Virus record (IMG/VR): IMGVR_UViG_3300031565_000009
Reading direction: 5' to 3' (one strand)
DNA from: a virus
Lineage: Duplodnaviria > Heunggongvirae > Uroviricota > Caudoviricetes
Length of the DNA: 14,752 nt
Part shown: positions 4,549-14,752 of the stretch, piece by piece
How the letters are laid out: every line of letters begins with the position of its first letter
Position numbering within the stretch: position 1 is the stretch's first letter
Translations under genes and position numbers: made by a program
The notes under the pieces: model-generated
What the model was told of the DNA's origin: nothing
Database searches by the model: none
Seen by the model: only the letters and a program-made list of their open reading frames with translations

Positions 4549-4726
4549 TCTCAGCCTCCTCGTGGGCCAATTCCAAGAAAGCCTCCCTCTCGTTGCCGTC
4601 GATCTTGACAAGCCACTGGGAGGCAAGGCTGCAATTGAACTCAATGCCAAGTGCTCGGGCGGCCGACACGACGCCAATCTTCGCCCGGCCACAGTCTTCA
4701 TGCACATCATTTGGGTGGATAATCAT
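4538..4726 (-). CDS. Hypothetical protein, 62 aa
   Basis: ATG 4726 with SD AAAGGA; fills the gap in a coupled gene run. Confidence 0.6.
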   Translation of the reverse strand: MIIHPNDVHEDCGRAKIGVVSAARALGIEFNCSLASQWLVKIDGNEREAFLELAHEEAENAT

Positions 4727-6328: not shown

Positions 6329-6356
6329 AGAATACCACGAAGGTGGCCAAAGTCAA
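6329..6356 (-). promoter_or_regulatory. Conserved sigma70-type promoter, family copy 2
   Basis: TTGACT-TTGGCCACCTTCGTGG-TATTCT-TGAATAGAG; only 2 differences from copy 1 over 37 bp. Confidence 0.8.
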
Positions 6357-8098: not shown

Positions 8099-9415
8099 TC
8101 AGAAGGTAGCTTCCGAGGCTAAGATAGGCTCCTCGTAAGTCGTTTTTGGAGTGTTTTGGGTCTTCTTTCGGCCCTTTTTGGTCTTCGGAAGGCCCTCGAC
8201 GACCCTTTTCAACTCCGTTTGCGGGCATCCATGATAGTCGCCATGCTTCGTGACGGTCCCGGTGATGTCCATGGTGTCGCCGACATTCCAGTCGTCCAGT
8301 TCCTTCGACGCCCACCACACAATGATGTTGCCGTCCGGCGTCTCGAAGCGAACGAGCGTGCGGACACCATAGGTGCCCTCAAAGTATTTCATCGCCTTGA
8401 CTTCGCAGCCCGCGAATCCAAAACGCTGGCCGACTTCGCCTAGATGCTTGCGCTGTCGATCCTGCTTCTTCCGCAGGTTCAACTCCTCGATGCGCTCCAA
8501 ATGCCGCAAGTAGGCCGATACCGCCGAGGCGACGAGGCCGATGGTCTTGTAGTTGACCGACTCTTGCCGGCAGGCTACACCCAGGTTGTACTCGTAGTTG
8601 CTGACGCCGGCCGCCGGGATCGCGCGAGCCCATGCCAGGGCCTCCCCGGCTAGTTTCTCGTCGCGTTCCTCCGCATACAGGCTGTGATTCTTGATTAACT
8701 CCTGGACGAACTTGCTCTTCCAGTTGGTCAAGATCATCCAGGCAGTCGAGCCCGTGGTCTGCTCGTCGCTGAACGGATCACTTTTCTCGATCATGCGGCG
8801 ACTCTTCCAACCCAGTCGGCGGATGCAGATCGCCACGGTGCCCAGAAACTCGCGGATGTCCCGCATCCGCCCACCACGTCCACCACCCCAGCAGAAGTCT
8901 TCATCTTCCGCCTCGCGGGCGGCATCAAGGGCCGAGAACTCCCATCCCGCGCGGGCGGCCAGCGTTAAGGCGGAAACGTGCCCGAGGAAGTCGGCGATAC
9001 ACTGCCGGCCAACCTGCACGATGCGGCCATCCTCGTGGCCAAGCACGAAGACTTCCTTCCGCCGACGCAAGGCTTGGCAATGATCGCAGTGGGTATCGGT
9101 GCTGCGGTACACCTCTGGCACAGTCTGCCCGGGGACCGTGCGGACCAGATTCTCACCGTTGTCAAGCATTTCGATGGCCGCCAGCAGGGTCCAACCCTCA
9201 AACTTGGGCGACTCGCCGATCACCTCGATCTCCAGACGGGCTTGCTTATACACCAGCTTCGTGTCCGGCTGACGCTTCTTTACCTCAAACTCGCGAACGA
9301 CCCGCAACGCGATGGGCTGGCAGCCCAGCTTCTTGGCGCGGCGGTTCAGCCTTTCGATCCGCTCGCGGAGGTGATCGAAGTTGTAGGCGGGGATGTCGAA
9401 GACGTTCTCATTCAT
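8099..9415 (-). CDS. Phage-type protein with Zn finger and C-terminal OB-fold-like domain, 438 aa
   Basis: Start reassigned to ATG 9415 (MNENVFDIPAYNFDHLRERIERLNRRAKKLG) because a promoter lies inside the longer ORF. CDHC...VGRQC Zn motif; C-terminal HLGEVGQR...GTYGVRTLVRFETPDGNIIVWWAS...ITGTVTKHGDYHGCPQTELKRV has an OB-fold pattern. Confidence 0.8.
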   Translation of the reverse strand: MNENVFDIPAYNFDHLRERIERLNRRAKKLGCQPIALRVVREFEVKKRQPDTKLVYKQARLEIEVIGESPKFEGWTLLAAIEMLDNGENLVRTVPGQTVPEVYRSTDTHCDHCQALRRRKEVFVLGHEDGRIVQVGRQCIADFLGHVSALTLAARAGWEFSALDAAREAEDEDFCWGGGRGGRMRDIREFLGTVAICIRRLGWKSRRMIEKSDPFSDEQTTGSTAWMILTNWKSKFVQELIKNHSLYAEERDEKLAGEALAWARAIPAAGVSNYEYNLGVACRQESVNYKTIGLVASAVSAYLRHLERIEELNLRKKQDRQRKHLGEVGQRFGFAGCEVKAMKYFEGTYGVRTLVRFETPDGNIIVWWASKELDDWNVGDTMDITGTVTKHGDYHGCPQTELKRVVEGLPKTKKGRKKTQNTPKTTYEEPILASEATF

Positions 9416-9478
9416 GGTGTCGCTCACGGTGTCGCTCACGGTGTCGCTCACGGTGTCGCTCACGGTGTCGCTCACGGT
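9416..9478. repeat. Perfect 12-bp tandem array, GGTGTCGCTCAC x5 plus 3 nt
   Basis: Read directly; abuts ATG 9415 and lies downstream of the 9502-9529 promoter. Confidence 0.97.
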
Positions 9479-9501
9479 TGCTCGTTGCTCGACTCTATTC
9501 A

Positions 9502-9529
9502 AACATACCACAAATGTGGCAAAAGTCAA
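9502..9529 (-). promoter_or_regulatory. Conserved sigma70-type promoter, family copy 3
   Basis: TTGACT-TTTGCCACATTTGTGG-TATGTT-TGAATAGAG; preceded on the minus strand by a T9 run (9533-9541). Confidence 0.8.
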
Positions 9530-9592
9530 GACAAAAAAAAACCCCGGACTTGCGAACGGTAGCTTGCGAGCTGGTCGAAGGGATTGCAGCAA

Positions 9593-9943
9593 TCAGGAGG
9601 CCGTCTTTGGCGATATGAGTTGCGTCACCTTGCCGCTGAAGCGGCAGCCGCCGTTCTTGAACTTCACGTAGGTGCCATCAAAGCGGTATACCGAGCCCTT
9701 GACGCCTCGCTGCTCGACGTACTGGTCAATATACTCGATCAAGTCGTCGAAGAACCAGGGCGAATTGTTGAGGCCGTCGAACTCGCACTGGATCGGCACG
9801 ATGCCACCATACGCCCCGTAGGCAAAGAGGATGTAGCCTGTGTAAACGCGGCGGGGCTCTGGAGCCAAATGGCCCCACGTTGCCTCCATCACGGCGGCAC
9901 GGTAGCGGGCTTCATGTTCGGCAAAAGCATCACTCAAAGGCAT
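9593..9943 (-). CDS. Hypothetical protein, 116 aa
   Basis: ATG 9943 (or GTG 9946) with SD GGAGG; globular composition; co-oriented. Confidence 0.7.
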   Translation of the reverse strand: MPLSDAFAEHEARYRAAVMEATWGHLAPEPRRVYTGYILFAYGAYGGIVPIQCEFDGLNNSPWFFDDLIEYIDQYVEQRGVKGSVYRFDGTYVKFKNGGCRFSGKVTQLISPKTAS

Positions 9944-10028
9944 CACTTCCCCTCCAATCATCCACCCTTTTCGTAGACACTCCACATGATGATCGAAAAT
10001 AGCCGGCTTCCCACATTCAAACAGTGCT

Positions 10029-10793
10029 TCATTCCATAGCCTTGCAACAATTTAACACGCCAGTCTTGCTGCCAAGATAGTTCGCGCCAAGATAACGGCC
10101 AATTACACGTCGCAGCGTTGATTCATTCCACGGCTTGCCAGTGCGGGTCTTGCTTTCAGTGGCATTTAATTGGTCTACAATCTGCTGCAACGTCAGGCCA
10201 GATTCACGCATATACTTGATCCACGGCACAAGGGGCTCGTAGCACTTTTTCATTTCCTCTCGCGAGATATTCTGTGCTGCCGCCGTTGCCTGACGAAAAC
10301 CTCTCTTCTTGCCATCCCAGTGACCCTCCCGGTGCGAGCCCAGTTTCACGCCGCGAGACTTGAGCACGTCGAGGGCAGCCGTGGTCCGATCGGAGATCAT
10401 CCGCCCCTCACGCTCGGCCAGGGCAGCAAGGATATGGAGAGTGAACTGGTCCGCCTCGGGCATATCGCAGCAGATGATCGGCAGTTGGCTCTCCATGAGA
10501 GCGCTGATGAAGGCCACGTTACGGGCCAGGCGGTCCAACTTGGCAATCACCAAGGTCGCCCGCGTCTTGCGGGCATGGGCAATGGCCTTCTGCAACTGTG
10601 GCCGGCGAAGACACTTCTTCAGCCGCTTGCCGGTCTCCACCTCAGTGTATTCGCCGATCTTCGTGCCTGGCCGGCCGACCAGGAGTCGGGCAAACATGGT
10701 CCGCTGGGCTTCAAGCCCGAGACCCGAGTGACCTTGCTTCACGTCGGAAACGCGATAGTAGACGACATACTGAGTGGGCATGGTTGTTGGCAT
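10029..10793 (-). CDS. Serine recombinase (resolvase catalytic domain plus C-terminal recombinase-type DNA-binding domain), 254 aa
   Basis: Catalytic YYRVS...Q..SGLGLEAQ, then EVETG, RPQL, LVIAKLDRLARN, LAALAEREGRMISDRTTAAL, and a C-terminal TLQQIVDQLN...TRTGKPW HTH. SD GAGGAG. Confidence 0.92.
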   Translation of the reverse strand: MPTTMPTQYVVYYRVSDVKQGHSGLGLEAQRTMFARLLVGRPGTKIGEYTEVETGKRLKKCLRRPQLQKAIAHARKTRATLVIAKLDRLARNVAFISALMESQLPIICCDMPEADQFTLHILAALAEREGRMISDRTTAALDVLKSRGVKLGSHREGHWDGKKRGFRQATAAAQNISREEMKKCYEPLVPWIKYMRESGLTLQQIVDQLNATESKTRTGKPWNESTLRRVIGRYLGANYLGSKTGVLNCCKAME

Positions 10794-10813
10794 GATCGTG
10801 TCTCCTCAACACA

Positions 10814-10841
10814 ATCATACCACAATTTTGGCGAAAGTCAA
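10814..10841 (-). promoter_or_regulatory. Conserved sigma70-type promoter, family copy 4
   Basis: TTGACT-TTCGCCAAAATTGTGG-TATGAT, 16-bp spacer, directly upstream of SD GAGGAG and ATG 10793. Confidence 0.8.
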
Positions 10842-10899
10842 ATGGAAAAGCAAAGAGAAAAGCAAAGAGAAAGCAAATGGAAAAGCAAAAGAAACAAGC
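10840..10899. repeat. Degenerate ~12-bp A-rich tandem repeat, about 5 units
   Basis: AAATGGAAAAGC, AAAGAGAAAAGC, AAAGAGAAAGC, AAATGGAAAAGC, AAAAGAAACAAGC; abuts the -35 box. Confidence 0.75.
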
Positions 10900-10957
10900 C
10901 CGCCCGGGAAAGGGTCTCGTGCAACGCAACTTGCAACACAACGCAACCCGGGCGGGC
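10880..10957 (-). terminator. Putative terminator-like hairpin with U-rich tail
   Basis: 11-bp perfect inverted repeat GCCCGCCCGGG (10898-10908 / 10947-10957) followed on the minus strand by TTGTTTCTTTTGCTTTT. The 38-nt loop is unusually long. Confidence 0.5.
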
Positions 10958-10980
10958 CGTAGGGTGTCAGATTGTTGGTG

Positions 10981-11052
10981 TCAGACTGAATATCAGACTG
11001 AATATCAGACTGAGTATCAGACTGAGTATCAGACTGAGTATCAGACTGAGTA
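10981..11052. repeat. 12-bp tandem array, TCAGACTGA(A/G)TA x6
   Basis: Two copies TCAGACTGAATA then four copies TCAGACTGAGTA. The last copy is the final 12 nt of CDS 11041-11418, including its TGA. Confidence 0.97.
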
Positions 11053-11418
11053 GCCGTACTTCACTCGGAAGTCTGGGTTGTGCTTCATCAGCGCCAGCTT
11101 GGCAAACACCTCGCTCGACGTGCCGCCGCCGGCAAGGGAACTCTTCCACTGGTCAATATGATACTTCGACACGCCCCAATAGTAGACAACAGCCAATTCC
11201 ACTTCTTCGATCACTGCCCGCACCAAGCCGTTGCAAAAGATGGGAATCAGCTTGCCCCGATACGTGGTGGCTGGCCACCGGATGGGGGAGTCCGTGAAGC
11301 CGTCCACTTTCACGTCGCCGAGCCATTCATCTCTGACGATCTGTCCCTTGCGGGCCTTGGGCGGCATGTAGGGGCCGGCGTTGAATCGGTACTCGTAGGG
11401 AGGTGGGAAAGTGCTCAT
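11041..11418 (-). CDS. Putative HTH-containing protein, 125 aa
   Basis: GLVRAVIEEVELAVVYYWGVSKYHIDQWKSSL fits an HTH pattern. GPY-x-PP...D-x-PI-x-WP resembles uncharacterised proteins I recall from Planctomycetota (unverified). Confidence 0.65.
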   Translation of the reverse strand: MSTFPPPYEYRFNAGPYMPPKARKGQIVRDEWLGDVKVDGFTDSPIRWPATTYRGKLIPIFCNGLVRAVIEEVELAVVYYWGVSKYHIDQWKSSLAGGGTSSEVFAKLALMKHNPDFRVKYGYSV

Positions 11419-11430
11419 GCTGTTCTCATG

Positions 11431-12396
11431 CTATGCCCGCAACGCGCCCTCAGATTCGGTGGTGGCACCCAGGTACTCCTTGCCGATATAGCGCTTGACA
11501 ATGTTCCAGACCACACTCTGGCTGTAGTTGGACCCGCGCGGAGTCTGGTAGCCCTCCTCATTGAGGCGGTCAGCAATGTCGTGGAAGGTCAGACCCTCCT
11601 CGCGAAGCTGCTTGATCTTGGGCACTACCTTGGCGAGCACTTCTTCCTTCCGCTCGGCAGTCACGGAGCGATACTTGCCCTTCCGTGTGACGTTGCCCAG
11701 GTACTCGTCGCCAAGGTAGCGTTTGATGACGCGCCACAATGAAGCCTGTGAAAAGGGTTTGCCCGCAGTCGTCACCTTGCCCTGATCGTTCAGCCAACGG
11801 ACGATCTCGTCCATCGTGTCGCCGCGCGTGCGGCGCTTCTTAATCTCGGGCAAGAGCCACTGGTATTCCCGCAAGGCTTTCTCACTCCGCGCCTTCGATG
11901 CGGCCGGCACAGCTTGACGCCAACCGCGCTTGTGCTCGCGCCCCTTCCAGTGCCCGGGCCTGGCCGAACCAAGCGGCTTGCCCTCAGCCTTCAGCCTGGC
12001 CATCACCTCCCGATTGCGGAGGGAGATGCGCCGCGACTCCTCTTGGGCAACGGCCGAAAGGATATGGATAGTCGTCGCATTGGCCGAAGGATTATCGAGA
12101 CAAATGAACTTCAATCCCGACGCCTGAGCCTCCTGGGCCAAGTAGCCGGTGAAGCCGGCGTTGCGGGCCAGGCGGTCCAGCCTGGCGATCACCAGGGTCG
12201 CCCCAGCCTTGCAGGCGTGGGCGATGGCCTTCTGCAACTGCGGCCGAGGAGCCCGCTTGTTGCCAACTGTCTCGACCTCGTTGTAGGAGGCAAGCACCTC
12301 GCCACCAGCCGTCTTGAGCCAAGAGTTGACAGTTTTCCTCTGCCCGCCAAAATAGGGCTTGCCTTTCTTCGAGCGGTAGTAAATGATATAGGGCAT
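11431..12396 (-). CDS. Serine-recombinase-like protein with degenerate catalytic loop and duplicated C-terminal DNA-binding domain, 321 aa
   Basis: Clear paralog of 10029-10793 (RPQLQKAIAHA, ATLVIARLDRLARN, GHW-x-G, RYLG-x2-YLG). The N-terminus reads YYRSKKG instead of YYRVS, and the HTH-RY(L/I)G-x-EYLG module occurs twice. Confidence 0.88.
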   Translation of the reverse strand: MPYIIYYRSKKGKPYFGGQRKTVNSWLKTAGGEVLASYNEVETVGNKRAPRPQLQKAIAHACKAGATLVIARLDRLARNAGFTGYLAQEAQASGLKFICLDNPSANATTIHILSAVAQEESRRISLRNREVMARLKAEGKPLGSARPGHWKGREHKRGWRQAVPAASKARSEKALREYQWLLPEIKKRRTRGDTMDEIVRWLNDQGKVTTAGKPFSQASLWRVIKRYLGDEYLGNVTRKGKYRSVTAERKEEVLAKVVPKIKQLREEGLTFHDIADRLNEEGYQTPRGSNYSQSVVWNIVKRYIGKEYLGATTESEGALRA

Positions 12397-12423
12397 CTCT
12401 TTCTCGGTGACAGAGTTGAAGCG

Positions 12424-12550
12424 ACTTCAACGGACACTTCAACGGACACTTCAACGGACACTTCAACGGACACTTCAACGGACACTTCAACGGACACTTC
12501 AACGGACACTTCAACGGACACTTCAACGGACACTTCAACGGACACTTCAA
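12424..12550. repeat. Perfect 12-bp tandem array, ACTTCAACGGAC x10 plus 7 nt
   Basis: Read directly; spans from the -10 box of the 12550-12577 promoter to 27 nt before ATG 12396. Confidence 0.97.
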
Positions 12551-12577
12551 TCTTACACCATCATCGTCAGAAGTCAA
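12550..12577 (-). promoter_or_regulatory. sigma70-type promoter, divergent family copy 5
   Basis: TTGACT-TCTGACGATGATGGTG-TAAGAT-TGAA: same -35 box, 16-bp spacer and TGAA after the -10 box. Confidence 0.65.
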
Positions 12578-12607
12578 ATCCGACTTGATCGTCAACTCGA
12601 AGCGGGC

Positions 12608-12646
12608 GGTGGTATCGTCTGCAACGTCTATACCGACGATACCACC
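12608..12646. promoter_or_regulatory. 12-bp inverted repeat (hairpin or operator) between divergent promoters
   Basis: GGTGGTATCGTC (12608-12619) / GACGATACCACC (12635-12646), 15-nt loop. Confidence 0.6.
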
Positions 12647-12685
12647 TAAATGCCGAATGTTTCTACCAGAAGTGGGCGTGGACAC

Positions 12686-12714
12686 TTGACAACTAACTCT
12701 TCTAATAATAAGGT
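12686..12714 (+). promoter_or_regulatory. sigma70-type promoter for the plus-strand gene
   Basis: Perfect TTGACA-N17-TAAGGT with an AT-rich spacer. Confidence 0.7.
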
Positions 12715-12753
12715 ATTGTAAATGGCCAGACCGATTGGACCCGCGAGCACCTT

Positions 12754-13140
12754 ATGATGATCCACACAATCATCCACACAATCAGTCCCATGATGATGGC
12801 CCTTCACAATGGAGTAGCCGAATACCAACCCCTTCACCCGGGGGTTGAATTGGCCCGCGAGAATCAGGACACCTTAGTCTCTGTCGCCAATCTCCATCTC
12901 CTCCATGATGAAGGTCTACAAGTGCTGAACCTGATCGCCGGCACAGCCGGCCTTCTGTTCATCTTCCACACCGGCGAACAGTACCTCGCCACGGGGCTCC
13001 GCGTGGGCAATCACCAATCGGTCGAATCCCTGGCCGAACTCATGGCAGAGTGGGCCTTTGGCGACCGGCGGGAGTTGTCCGCCCTCTACGCGGCACTGCC
13101 AGACGACTACCGAGGCCCCATACCCTTGGGTCAGGTTTGA
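12754..13140 (+). CDS. Hypothetical protein, up to 128 aa; only supported plus-strand gene
   Basis: Lies downstream of a consensus promoter, does not shadow a credible minus-strand gene, and has globular composition. Start codon uncertain. Confidence 0.6.
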   Translation: MMIHTIIHTISPMMMALHNGVAEYQPLHPGVELARENQDTLVSVANLHLLHDEGLQVLNLIAGTAGLLFIFHTGEQYLATGLRVGNHQSVESLAELMAEWAFGDRRELSALYAALPDDYRGPIPLGQV

Positions 13141-13239
13141 TCGGCAGCTTGATCGGCAGCTTGATCGGCAGCTTGATCGGCAGCTTGATCGGCAGCTTGA
13201 TCGGCAGCTTGATCGGCAGCTTGATCGGCAGCTTGATCG
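13137..13239. repeat. Perfect 12-bp tandem array, TTGATCGGCAGC x8 plus 7 nt
   Basis: Read directly; the first unit contains the TGA stop (13138-13140) of CDS 12754-13140. Confidence 0.97.
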
Positions 13240-13257
13240 ACGGTTTGACGGGCTATG

Positions 13258-13693
13258 CTGACGCGGCAAAAAGAGTAACTGCTCCGGCAGGATAGTAACT
13301 CGTCACAAGTCTCTGGCAGGCCGTGGGTTATGACGATAGAGTTACCCAAACAGGCATAATTACCCTTTTCGCCACATCTGTTCTATATGCGCTGTTGTAT
13401 GTTTCTCTATTTAGTATTTGGATAGTATCAGAAATAGAGTAACTACAATAACATAAGTAACTAGACAAGCACTAAAGTCTTACTGCAAAACGATTTGCAA
13501 AAGTGACCCATTCGCGAATCTCGGCTAAAAAAGGGTAATTCCAGCCACTAAAAGGTCACTCCTTACCTGTCGCAAGACATTCTGACCGCCCAAGCTGGCC
13601 CCGCAAGCTGCCCGCTGCCCTTGCTGCCCTTGCTGCTTCCAGCCGTCAGACGCCGCCGGATGCTGCCAGCGGGCACCCTGATTGCCGCGTCAG
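13258..13693. other. Non-coding block with AT-rich core and several inverted repeats
   Basis: IR pairs: CTGACGCGGCAA 13258-13269 / 13682-13693; AATTACCCTTTT 13358-13369 / 13529-13540; CTCTATTT 13405-13412 / 13432-13439; AGTGACC 13502-13508 / 13554-13560. AGTAACT occurs 4 times. Confidence 0.7.
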
Positions 13694-14080
13694 GGTCCCT
13701 TTCGATTTGGCGCACCGCGATCTTGGCCCAGCCTCGCTCGATCTGGATTGCCGCGCCGGCTGACGTGATTTGACCCTCTCTCTCACCCTCTGCCGCGTCA
13801 GCACTCCCTAACCTTCACCACGGTCAGACTAAAGAGCACCCGGTCGCGCTGGTCGTAGGGGTTGTGTCGGTTCTACTGATTTTGACCCCGCCCGCCACCC
13901 ACCCGCCGTTAGCTTCCCTAGTTCGAGGCCGAACAATCTGCATCATCGCTACAATCGGAAGCCTCGTCGGTCCTTCGTCGTTCGTCAAAGGAGTGATGAT
14001 TGCCCACGCCCCGCCGATCATCCGCCGGGAGTCGAGGGCCACGCCCGGGAGTCGGGGCCGGTCGTGTCGGTTGCAGTGAT

Positions 14081-14117
14081 TGCCTACTTTTTAGGCACTG
14101 TGCCTACTTTTTAGGCA
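14081..14117. repeat. Tandem hairpin element TGCCTA-CTTTT-TAGGCA x2 (third copy 14433-14449)
   Basis: Exact 17-mers at 14081-14097 and 14101-14117; one-mismatch copy at 14433-14449. Confidence 0.9.
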
Positions 14118-14373
14118 GTCCTGGTTGTGACGGTTCTGCTAGATTTGCAATAAACAACTACTACCCTGGTAGTAGCTAACCGCGCGTGTAAATCGACTGC
14201 TCCGGCTATGCCGATCCTAGCGCTAGCGCCGGAAATGCACCCGCAAGCTACAATGATGCAACTATCAATTATATCGAGACTTACGACTATGCCGGCTTTG
14301 CCTTTCCGGCGCAATGTAGTAGATATTCCGGCGCGGAGTTGAGGCCCGCGCCCGCCCGCAAGAGACAGGTAGC

Positions 14374-14433
14374 GGTTGTCCTGGTTGTCCTGGTTGTCCT
14401 GGTTGTCCTGGTTGTCCTGGTTGTCCTGGTTGT
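14374..14433. repeat. Perfect 9-bp tandem array, GGTTGTCCT x6 plus 6 nt
   Basis: Read directly; a lone unit also occurs at about 14118-14128. Confidence 0.97.
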
Positions 14434-14520
14434 GCCTACTTTTTAGGTAGTGATGCCTAAAATAGTGGCACTGATTGCATCAATTGCAGCTTGCGGGTTG
14501 TATCGAGCGGGTCTTGCGCA

Positions 14521-14752
14521 GGCCCCGCCCGCCCGCCCGCCCGCCCGCCCGGCCACGGGCCGGCCACGGGCCGGAGTCGAGGGCAGGCCCCGCCCGCCGA
14601 TCATCCGCCCGGGAGTCGAGGGCCACGCCCGGCCGCCCGGCCACGGGCTGGAGTCGAGGGCAGGCCCCGCCCGGCCACGGGCCGGAGTCGAGGGCAGGCC
14701 CCGCCCGCCGATCATCCGCCCGGGAGTCGAGGGCAGGCCCCCGCCCGGCCAC
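14521..14752. repeat. GC-rich modular repeat region with GGAGTCGAGGG cores
   Basis: GCCC run at 14527-14550; GGAGTCGAGGG at 14573, 14612, 14650, 14684, 14723; perfect 61-bp direct repeat 14562-14622 / 14673-14733. Runs off the window edge. Confidence 0.92.

Follow-up and report, generated by a model that had tools for sequence, protein, structure and literature searches.

Locus-specific tandem arrays at gene boundaries near the end of a tailed phage genome of Planctomycetota

We analysed a 14,752-nucleotide (nt) stretch of viral DNA (IMG/VR record IMGVR_UViG_3300031565_000009; the whole stretch is referred to below as the window) that forms the end of a tailed phage with a genome of at least ~120 kb infecting Planctomycetota. 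An initial annotation, made from the letters alone, had described four long tandem arrays with a 12-bp period, a 12-bp doublet and a degenerate set, placed at gene starts and stops and built from a different unit at each locus. Tandem Repeats Finder (TRF) recovers all of them in place and adds three further arrays at 14374-14433, 14524-14551 and 14560-14752. The units of arrays A to E are unrelated to one another. Arrays A and C occupy 5' leaders behind sigma-70-like promoters, while B and D run from a stop codon onward, as follows:

9416..9478, minus strand: array A, GTGAGCGACACC x5.25, in the 5' leader of a phrog_2319-family gene and ending at its ATG (TRF 9412-9478, period 12 x5.6, 98% matches)
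10981..11052, minus strand: array B, TACTCAGTCTGA x6, four TAC units and then two TAT units (TRF 10981-11052, period 12 x6.0, 98% matches)
12424..12550, minus strand: array C, TGAAGTGTCCGT x10.6, filling the 5' leader of a recombinase gene (TRF 12424-12550, period 12 x10.6, 100% matches)
13137..13239, plus strand: array D, TTGATCGGCAGC x8.6 (TRF 13137-13239, period 12 x8.6, 100% matches)
12760..12784, plus strand: array E, ATCCACACAATC (IHTI IHTI), a doublet coding in frame near the start of a 128-amino-acid gene, at its N-terminus (TRF 12760-12784, period 12 x2.1)
10834..10894, minus strand: degenerate 11-12-bp array of TTTGCTTTTCYM type, placed between a terminator and the next -35 box (TRF 10834-10894, period 11-12, 77-79% matches)

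Seven arrays lie in the last 5.4 kb of the window, compared with 0.28 per 10 kb elsewhere (Poisson P about 3e-10), a background rate taken from 776 kb around phrog_2319-family homologues in 93 other loci. The concern that the arrays might be an assembly artefact is not borne out, as the same arrays occur at the same sites in four independent assemblies from three pipelines. JGI, ENA/MEGAHIT and Logan assemblies from different samples differ by 0-2 single-nucleotide polymorphisms (SNPs) in 11 kb and contain the arrays throughout. Copy numbers read from these assemblies are lower bounds, and the 127 bp of array C coincide with a common maximum k of 127, a possible k-mer ceiling. In one assembly, L002, the four arrays measure 39, 38, 31 and 31 bp, in every case the smallest in-phase length not below 28 bp. 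We rejected a biological reading of these low copy numbers, since such lengths are what de Bruijn collapse at k = 29 would produce. The arrays themselves are real and their boundary pattern is genuine; in comparison with most relatives they are statistically extraordinary.

Most genes of the window lie on the minus strand, including the neighbours of arrays A, B and C. Relatives share the gene order, namely the 128-amino-acid gene, a recombinase, a 125-amino-acid gene, a second recombinase and the phrog_2319-family gene. The features that adjoin the arrays are:

8099..9415, minus strand: phrog_2319-family gene, 438 amino acids, function unassigned (PHROG profile)
9502..9529, minus strand: sigma-70-like promoter of the array A gene, TTGACT, 16-nt spacer, TATGTT, with an extended -10 TG
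10029..10793, minus strand: serine recombinase, 254 amino acids (Pfam PF00239, E = 6e-20)
10814..10841, minus strand: promoter of the 254-amino-acid serine recombinase gene
10880..10957, minus strand: intrinsic terminator 3' of array B, with an 11-bp GC stem (10898-10908, 10947-10957) and a T-rich tail
11041..11418, minus strand: 125-amino-acid gene, conserved in relatives, with its stop inside array B
11431..12396, minus strand: serine recombinase, 321 amino acids, downstream of array C (Pfam PF00239, E = 1e-18)
12550..12577, minus strand: promoter of the 321-amino-acid recombinase gene, TTGACT, 16-nt spacer, TAAGAT
12754..13140, plus strand: 128-amino-acid gene, divergently transcribed, with same-position homologues in five relatives
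687-714, 6329-6356, 9502-9529, 10814-10841 and 12550-12577, minus strand: five-member promoter family

The five promoters are sigma-70-like, head transcription units and share the pattern TTGACTT + 15 bases + TAnnnT, for which 0.34 matches are expected by chance. The initial transcribed box after the -10 is TGAATAGAG in three of them and TGAAGT in one. Their spacer is conserved too, and leaders free of arrays measure ~40 nt.

Array A starts 23 nt past its -10 box and is open in the frame of the gene, with a GTG in every unit. The ATG at 9415 is the family start: the PHROG profile aligns from residue 1, and the first methionine is nearly invariant among 28 homologues. Public gene callers begin the gene inside array A, yielding 450 or 458 amino acids, and for this reason an exact look-up of the 438-residue protein returned no match. 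In L027, a relative with 63% protein identity, promoter and leader are as in the window and a single GTGAGTGACACC stands ahead of the ATG; L122 (67% identity) carries GAACGACACACC once, and L119 (43% identity) carries GAGTGACACC once. Given this single-copy motif in relatives, array A is a five-fold amplification of a conserved 12-nt motif. The GTGAGYGACACC-type motif lies directly ahead of the ATG in each case (window 9416-9427; L027 3977-3988; L119 260-269; L122 about 4652-4663), in the position expected for a ribosome-binding region. Its conservation extends to relatives with no more than 43% protein identity, and it probably has a role in translation initiation or regulation. L119 has ACG at the GTG position, which argues that the motif is kept as leader sequence and not as codons; the same locus has a 12-bp duplication spanning the ATG of its phrog_2319 homologue. 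Since array A has a GTG in frame behind every copy of the putative initiation motif, extra start sites are conceivable. The RNA of this leader folds no better than shuffled sequence (z = -0.9), with an almost empty centroid structure. A leader array conserved in position before phrog_2319 genes was considered and rejected: only the sister phage G001 has one, with a 15-bp unit, and there is none in ~90 other loci.

Array C starts immediately past the -10 box TAAGAT and stops 27 nt short of the ATG of the 321-amino-acid recombinase gene, with a TGA in the frame of that ATG in every unit. The relatives L027 and L024 keep both the promoter and the TGAAGT box, which is the start of the array C unit, and have leaders of ~36 nt with no array. 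With the array, an unstructured leader of roughly 40 nt grows to roughly 155 nt (fold z = -0.3 versus shuffled sequence, again with an almost empty centroid structure). Because relatives hold single copies of the leader units and no array, we read array A as a start-site motif, and array C as a transcription-start box, that was amplified locally and recently. We also considered array C as a string of promoters, as TTGAAG recurs along it, and discarded this possibility, since no correctly spaced -10 box follows. On the ATG side, array C is flanked (12412-12430) by the inverted complement of a stretch of its unit (GTTGAAG ... CTTCAAC), so that pairing with any unit is possible in DNA as well as in RNA.

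The first unit of array B, TAC TCA GTC TGA, reads Tyr-Ser-Val-stop and forms the end of the 125-amino-acid gene (stop 11041-11043); beyond it, the array is 3' untranslated region (UTR). No array B follows the orthologous stop in L122, L027, L104, L025 or L024. The terminator fold scores z = -4.8 for the whole stretch 10880-11060 including array B, and the terminator loop sequence is kept in L122, which has a 15-bp duplication of its own spanning the start codon of its 125-amino-acid gene orthologue. We take the degenerate array at 10834..10894 to be older than the others. On the opposite strand, the first unit of array D includes the TGA of the 128-amino-acid gene (13138-13140), and relatives have no counterpart of array D after the orthologous stop codons. 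The D unit is self-complementary around GATC, and D folded alone gives z = -1.4. The units of both B and D are self-complementary and, as predicted by folding of these two arrays, able to zip into long hairpins. Nine GATC sites at 12-bp spacing run across array D (13137-13239).

Comparison with related genomes, which the initial annotation had suggested, finds arrays A-D missing at the orthologous sites of L122, L027, L024, L104 and L025 despite the same gene order. Differences between near-identical assemblies of this phage are also concentrated in the arrays. The assembly L003 differs from the window at 8 positions in 13.3 kb, 6 of the 8 in tandem arrays (array E gains one unit, a 9-mer array three and a CCCG array one, array C loses eight units, and array B has two SNPs), while 9.6 kb of genes are identical. 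Both coding-side SNPs fall in array B. With its additional unit, array E has three copies in L003, the third carrying a SNP. We consider the L003 gains in E, the 9-mer and CCCG and its array B SNPs to be robust. Across assemblies, array E is present in 2 or 3 copies and the 9-mer in 6.7 or 9.7, and CCCG changes by one unit; the large differences in A, C and D are of the kind that k-mer collapse would give. Outside arrays there are only two SNPs, at window positions 13757 and 14224, and both lie in the non-coding terminal region.

The initial annotation had proposed that one mechanism repeatedly generates 12-bp duplications, or that the period is selected. We took a census of arrays in 69 kb of the phage genome (of at least ~120 kb) and in the sister phage G001 (L008; IMG/VR, 81.8 kb), which is syntenic and has 37 of 65 genes in common with it. 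The 69 kb hold 26 arrays, with period 12 the commonest (8 arrays), followed by 15 (5) and 11 (3). Non-coding arrays of at least four copies are restricted to the terminal 5.4 kb, and in the window these high-copy arrays all have period 12 or 9, CCCG excepted; elsewhere the phage has low-copy perfect duplications, again at gene edges, plus an 18-bp coding repeat. In G001 there are 50 arrays, whose periods span 5 to 186, with 15 as frequent as 12. The proposal therefore stands weakly: no period is commoner than 12 in this phage, but others occur beside it, and those of G001 range widely. Period 12 is not a lineage-wide rule, and repeat richness is a sporadic trait of particular genomes. In G001, ~1 kb of degenerate 18-bp repeats (711-1723; 56 copies, 74% match) lies near a contig end, and both contig ends stop in tandem arrays.

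Reading frame accounts for part of this distribution. The periods of G001 in-gene arrays are all divisible by three, as are 12 of the 26 outside genes. Arrays at start codons or N-termini have a period divisible by three in 7/7 cases, versus 5/10 for arrays that include a stop, a pattern that fits a selection filter. Frame constraint accounts for the period of array A and the doublet, but not for that of B, C and D. In this phage and G001 together, stop-inclusive arrays are enriched ~2.5-fold (7 observed versus 2.8 expected, P about 0.005; D would be an eighth) over a null that places seeds at random in array-free spacers; given gene calls from a simple caller, this enrichment is indicative only.

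Each of the four long units does contain a TGA on the sense strand, as the initial annotation had remarked, but we see no meaning in this. Two of these TGAs are the stop codons of genes, and two are inherited from single-copy seeds conserved in relatives. A cyclic 12-mer has a TGA with a probability of 0.14-0.16, and four random 12-mers share some trinucleotide in 7% of cases. We therefore rejected the TGA as a designed feature.

Beyond array D, the window ends in a gene-free region (13800-14752) with GC-rich modules that have GGAGTCGAGGG cores; corresponding regions are found at 1-520 of L002 and L003 and at 1-720 of L122. Its repeats are:

14374..14433, no strand assigned: 9-bp array GGTTGTCCT x6.7 (x9.7 in ENA assemblies)
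14524..14551, no strand assigned: CCCG x7 (one unit more in L003)
14560-14752: GC-rich 34-bp modular repeat, running to the window end

Degenerate GGTTGT-type copies occur near the 9-bp array and in L122. The window and L122 have GGTTGTGACGGTKCTG and the 9-mer family in common, so that this region may in part serve a function, perhaps that of an origin. A palindromic motif, TGCCTACTTTTTAGGCA, has three copies (window 14079-14119 and 14431-14451), and a 16-nt inverted repeat (14239-14254, 14483-14498) brackets the 9-mer array together with the TGCCTACTTTTTAGGCA copy at 14431-14451. Every assembly breaks in the terminal region, and a 37-bp module differs between assemblies.

The identity of the carrier follows from PHROG and Pfam matches to a topoisomerase-like protein (phrog_6247), the phrog_2319-family protein and the two serine recombinases, and from a walk along public assemblies of the same phage, which added a large terminase of the lambda type, a tape measure and a DNA polymerase of family A. 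The phrog_2319 protein has homologues in metagenome-assembled genomes of Pirellulales, Planctomycetia and Thermoguttaceae. The carrier thus has the structural and packaging genes of a phage, and relatives of it are present as prophages in metagenome-assembled genomes of Pirellulales and Planctomycetia. Megablast of the window against GenBank phages gave no match, an exact 34-mer taken from the window had no match in IMG/VR, an Rfam scan of the window found no known RNA family, and a tRNA scan of the window found none.

Taken together, we consider it probable, with some reserve, that the arrays arose recently by tandem duplication and are hypermutable, in the manner of variable-number tandem repeats (VNTRs) and of the repeats in Borg elements; they would survive only where they are harmless and may have side effects on expression. 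Each array would be an amplified 12-nt piece of local sequence, most likely produced by slippage or template switching as phage DNA replicates or recombines, and arrays would build up in the promoter-dense terminal module. Purifying selection would then act as a filter, letting arrays persist in a 5' leader (A and C), from the stop onward (B and D) or as an in-frame N-terminal insertion (E). Effects on expression would be by-products open to selection: A would multiply the motif ahead of the ATG, C would lengthen the leader, and B and D would add a self-pairing 3' UTR.

Several observations weigh against this account. The seeds coincide exactly with functional boundaries (first base past the -10 box, last base ahead of the ATG, stop codon), which a null of short UTRs predicts poorly. 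Array A amplifies a conserved, probably functional motif, which is compatible with selection for more copies. The three arrays free of frame constraint, B, C and D, all have period 12, an outcome with a chance of about 0.004-0.03 at a background frequency of 0.16-0.31, so that a modest bias towards 12-bp lengths, or selection on length, is possible in this phage. On the side of method, copy numbers are minimum values whose variation is known between assemblies only, and the gene calls behind the stop enrichment come from a simple home-made, self-trained caller.

That the arrays are selected regulatory devices, phage contingency loci whose copy number tunes the dose of terminal-module genes, we regard as possible but unlikely. 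Array A would act as tandem initiation regions with in-frame GUG codons, C as an unstructured leader of variable length, and B and D as 3' hairpins for mRNA stability or termination. The amplification of units from conserved functional boundary motifs agrees with such roles, as do the A and C leaders that fold no better than shuffled sequence, the self-complementary B and D with a strong terminator after B, the clustering of arrays in the promoter-dense terminal module, and the occurrence of period 12 at three independent start codons (window, L119 and G001). However, relatives with the same genes and promoters do without arrays, which are therefore not needed for regulation; periods divisible by three cannot give ON/OFF switching by frameshift; a leader array is found at only 2 of the 5 family promoters; and the z-score of D alone reaches only -1.4. 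We find it somewhat less plausible still that a biased process or selection amplifies motifs of ~12 nt exactly at expression boundaries (the first transcribed bases, the translation-initiation motif and the stop codon) to produce heritable, quickly reversible dosage variants of terminal-module genes, with array A, as a tandem series of start sites with in-frame GUG codons, giving rise to a ladder of N-terminal isoforms.

That some arrays code for amino-acid repeats is, as a general explanation, improbable. Translated from an array GTG, as the 450- and 458-residue gene calls imply, array A would give the phrog_2319-family protein an N-terminal (SDTV)n tail. The array is open in frame with a GTG beginning each unit, Prodigal-type callers place the gene start within it, the window unit and the single copy of L027 differ only synonymously in that frame, and array E is clearly coding. 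Against a coding role for A, the PHROG profile and the 28 homologues begin at the ATG, and L119 keeps the motif with ACG in place of GTG; in addition, the leader array of G001 contains stop codons, and all units of array C carry a TGA in the frame of its gene.

Protein-binding sites in DNA, whether origin or packaging iterons near the genome end or accessory sites of the serine recombinases, are very improbable. The arrays do lie within about 5 kb of the gene-free, repeat-rich end where assemblies break, and they flank recombinase genes, but the unit differs from array to array, so that each would require its own binding protein; the arrays fall inside predicted transcripts, and a look for inverted sites that would point to an invertible segment found none. 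Arrays are missing from relatives whose recombinases are orthologous and whose layout is the same, and on this ground, together with the differing units, both recombinase sites and iterons are disfavoured. Least credible of all is that the assembler made the arrays or their lengths, for although the L002 lengths fit collapse at k = 29 and array C matches the common maximum k, the sites recur in JGI, ENA and Logan assemblies of different samples and the internal variant units of B and E are not producible by de Bruijn loop collapse.

The preferred reading, young tandem duplications under a selection filter, places the arrays among repeats described before. Borgs are extrachromosomal elements of Methanoperedens with perfect tandem repeats, both nucleotide (TRs) and amino-acid (aaTRs) (Schoelmerich et al. 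2023, PLoS Biol, PMC9879509). Their in-gene periods are always divisible by three, compared with only 14-38% of intergenic units; their units are 48% A, and repeat richness is specific to certain genomes (PMC9879509). The analogy with Borgs drawn in the initial annotation is a fair one as far as behaviour goes: the arrays are perfect, locally derived, missing in relatives and, to judge from the assemblies, variable between populations, and some have their first unit in a gene end. With C and D at 100% and A and B at 98% matches, the four long arrays are of Borg-type size and perfection (at least about 50 nt and at least three copies). Like Borg TRs, the arrays consist of perfect head-to-tail units unique to each locus, of local origin and flanked by partial or degenerate copies; they are missing in close relatives and in some cases place the first unit inside a gene end. 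The in-gene arrays of G001, too, have only periods divisible by three. They differ in that the carrier is a tailed phage of ~120 kb of Planctomycetota and not a giant linear archaeal element, in that units are not A-rich (25% A, 28% C, 23% G and 23% T; 21% A on the sense strand of genes), in that high-copy non-coding arrays lie within about 5 kb and not genome-wide, and in that these have period 12 or 9, except for CCCG. A search of the literature collection at hand for phages with Borg-like repeats turned up no papers other than those on Borgs.

Slipped-strand mispairing is the source of change in bacterial VNTRs, minisatellites and simple-sequence contingency loci, and classical phase variation involves units of 1-7 bp that shift a reading frame or the spacing of a promoter. 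The arrays resemble bacterial VNTRs in changing by whole units, in their location in promoters, leaders and gene ends, and in a mutation rate far higher than that of the flanking DNA. Unlike contingency loci, they have 12-bp units that lie in frame or outside it and downstream of the -10 box, and are not predicted to act as an ON/OFF switch. The iterons at origins of phages and plasmids are direct repeats of roughly 10-20 bp in non-coding DNA, with one unit recognised by Rep, spaced rather than strictly head to tail, and conserved among relatives. The arrays described here lack this common Rep-recognised unit, the spacing and the conservation; their units differ and relatives are without them. 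The arrays are an instance of known repeat behaviour, Borg- or VNTR-like, and not a new kind of element.

For annotation, arrays with periods divisible by three open misleading frames (window 8099-9592, 10877-11053 and 12916-13269) and create small spurious open reading frames. Gene callers are misled by them, and databases carry versions of 450 and 458 amino acids of the 438-amino-acid protein. Short-read assemblers collapse the arrays to lengths that depend on k. For the biology of these phages, the single-copy seeds at orthologous sites, a motif before the start codon and a box after the -10, give an unusually clean view of the birth of an array. Tandem-repeat behaviour in the style of Borgs now extends to a tailed bacteriophage of Planctomycetota, and if copy number affects expression, the arrays would be simple natural dials on genes of the terminal module, such as the two recombinases.

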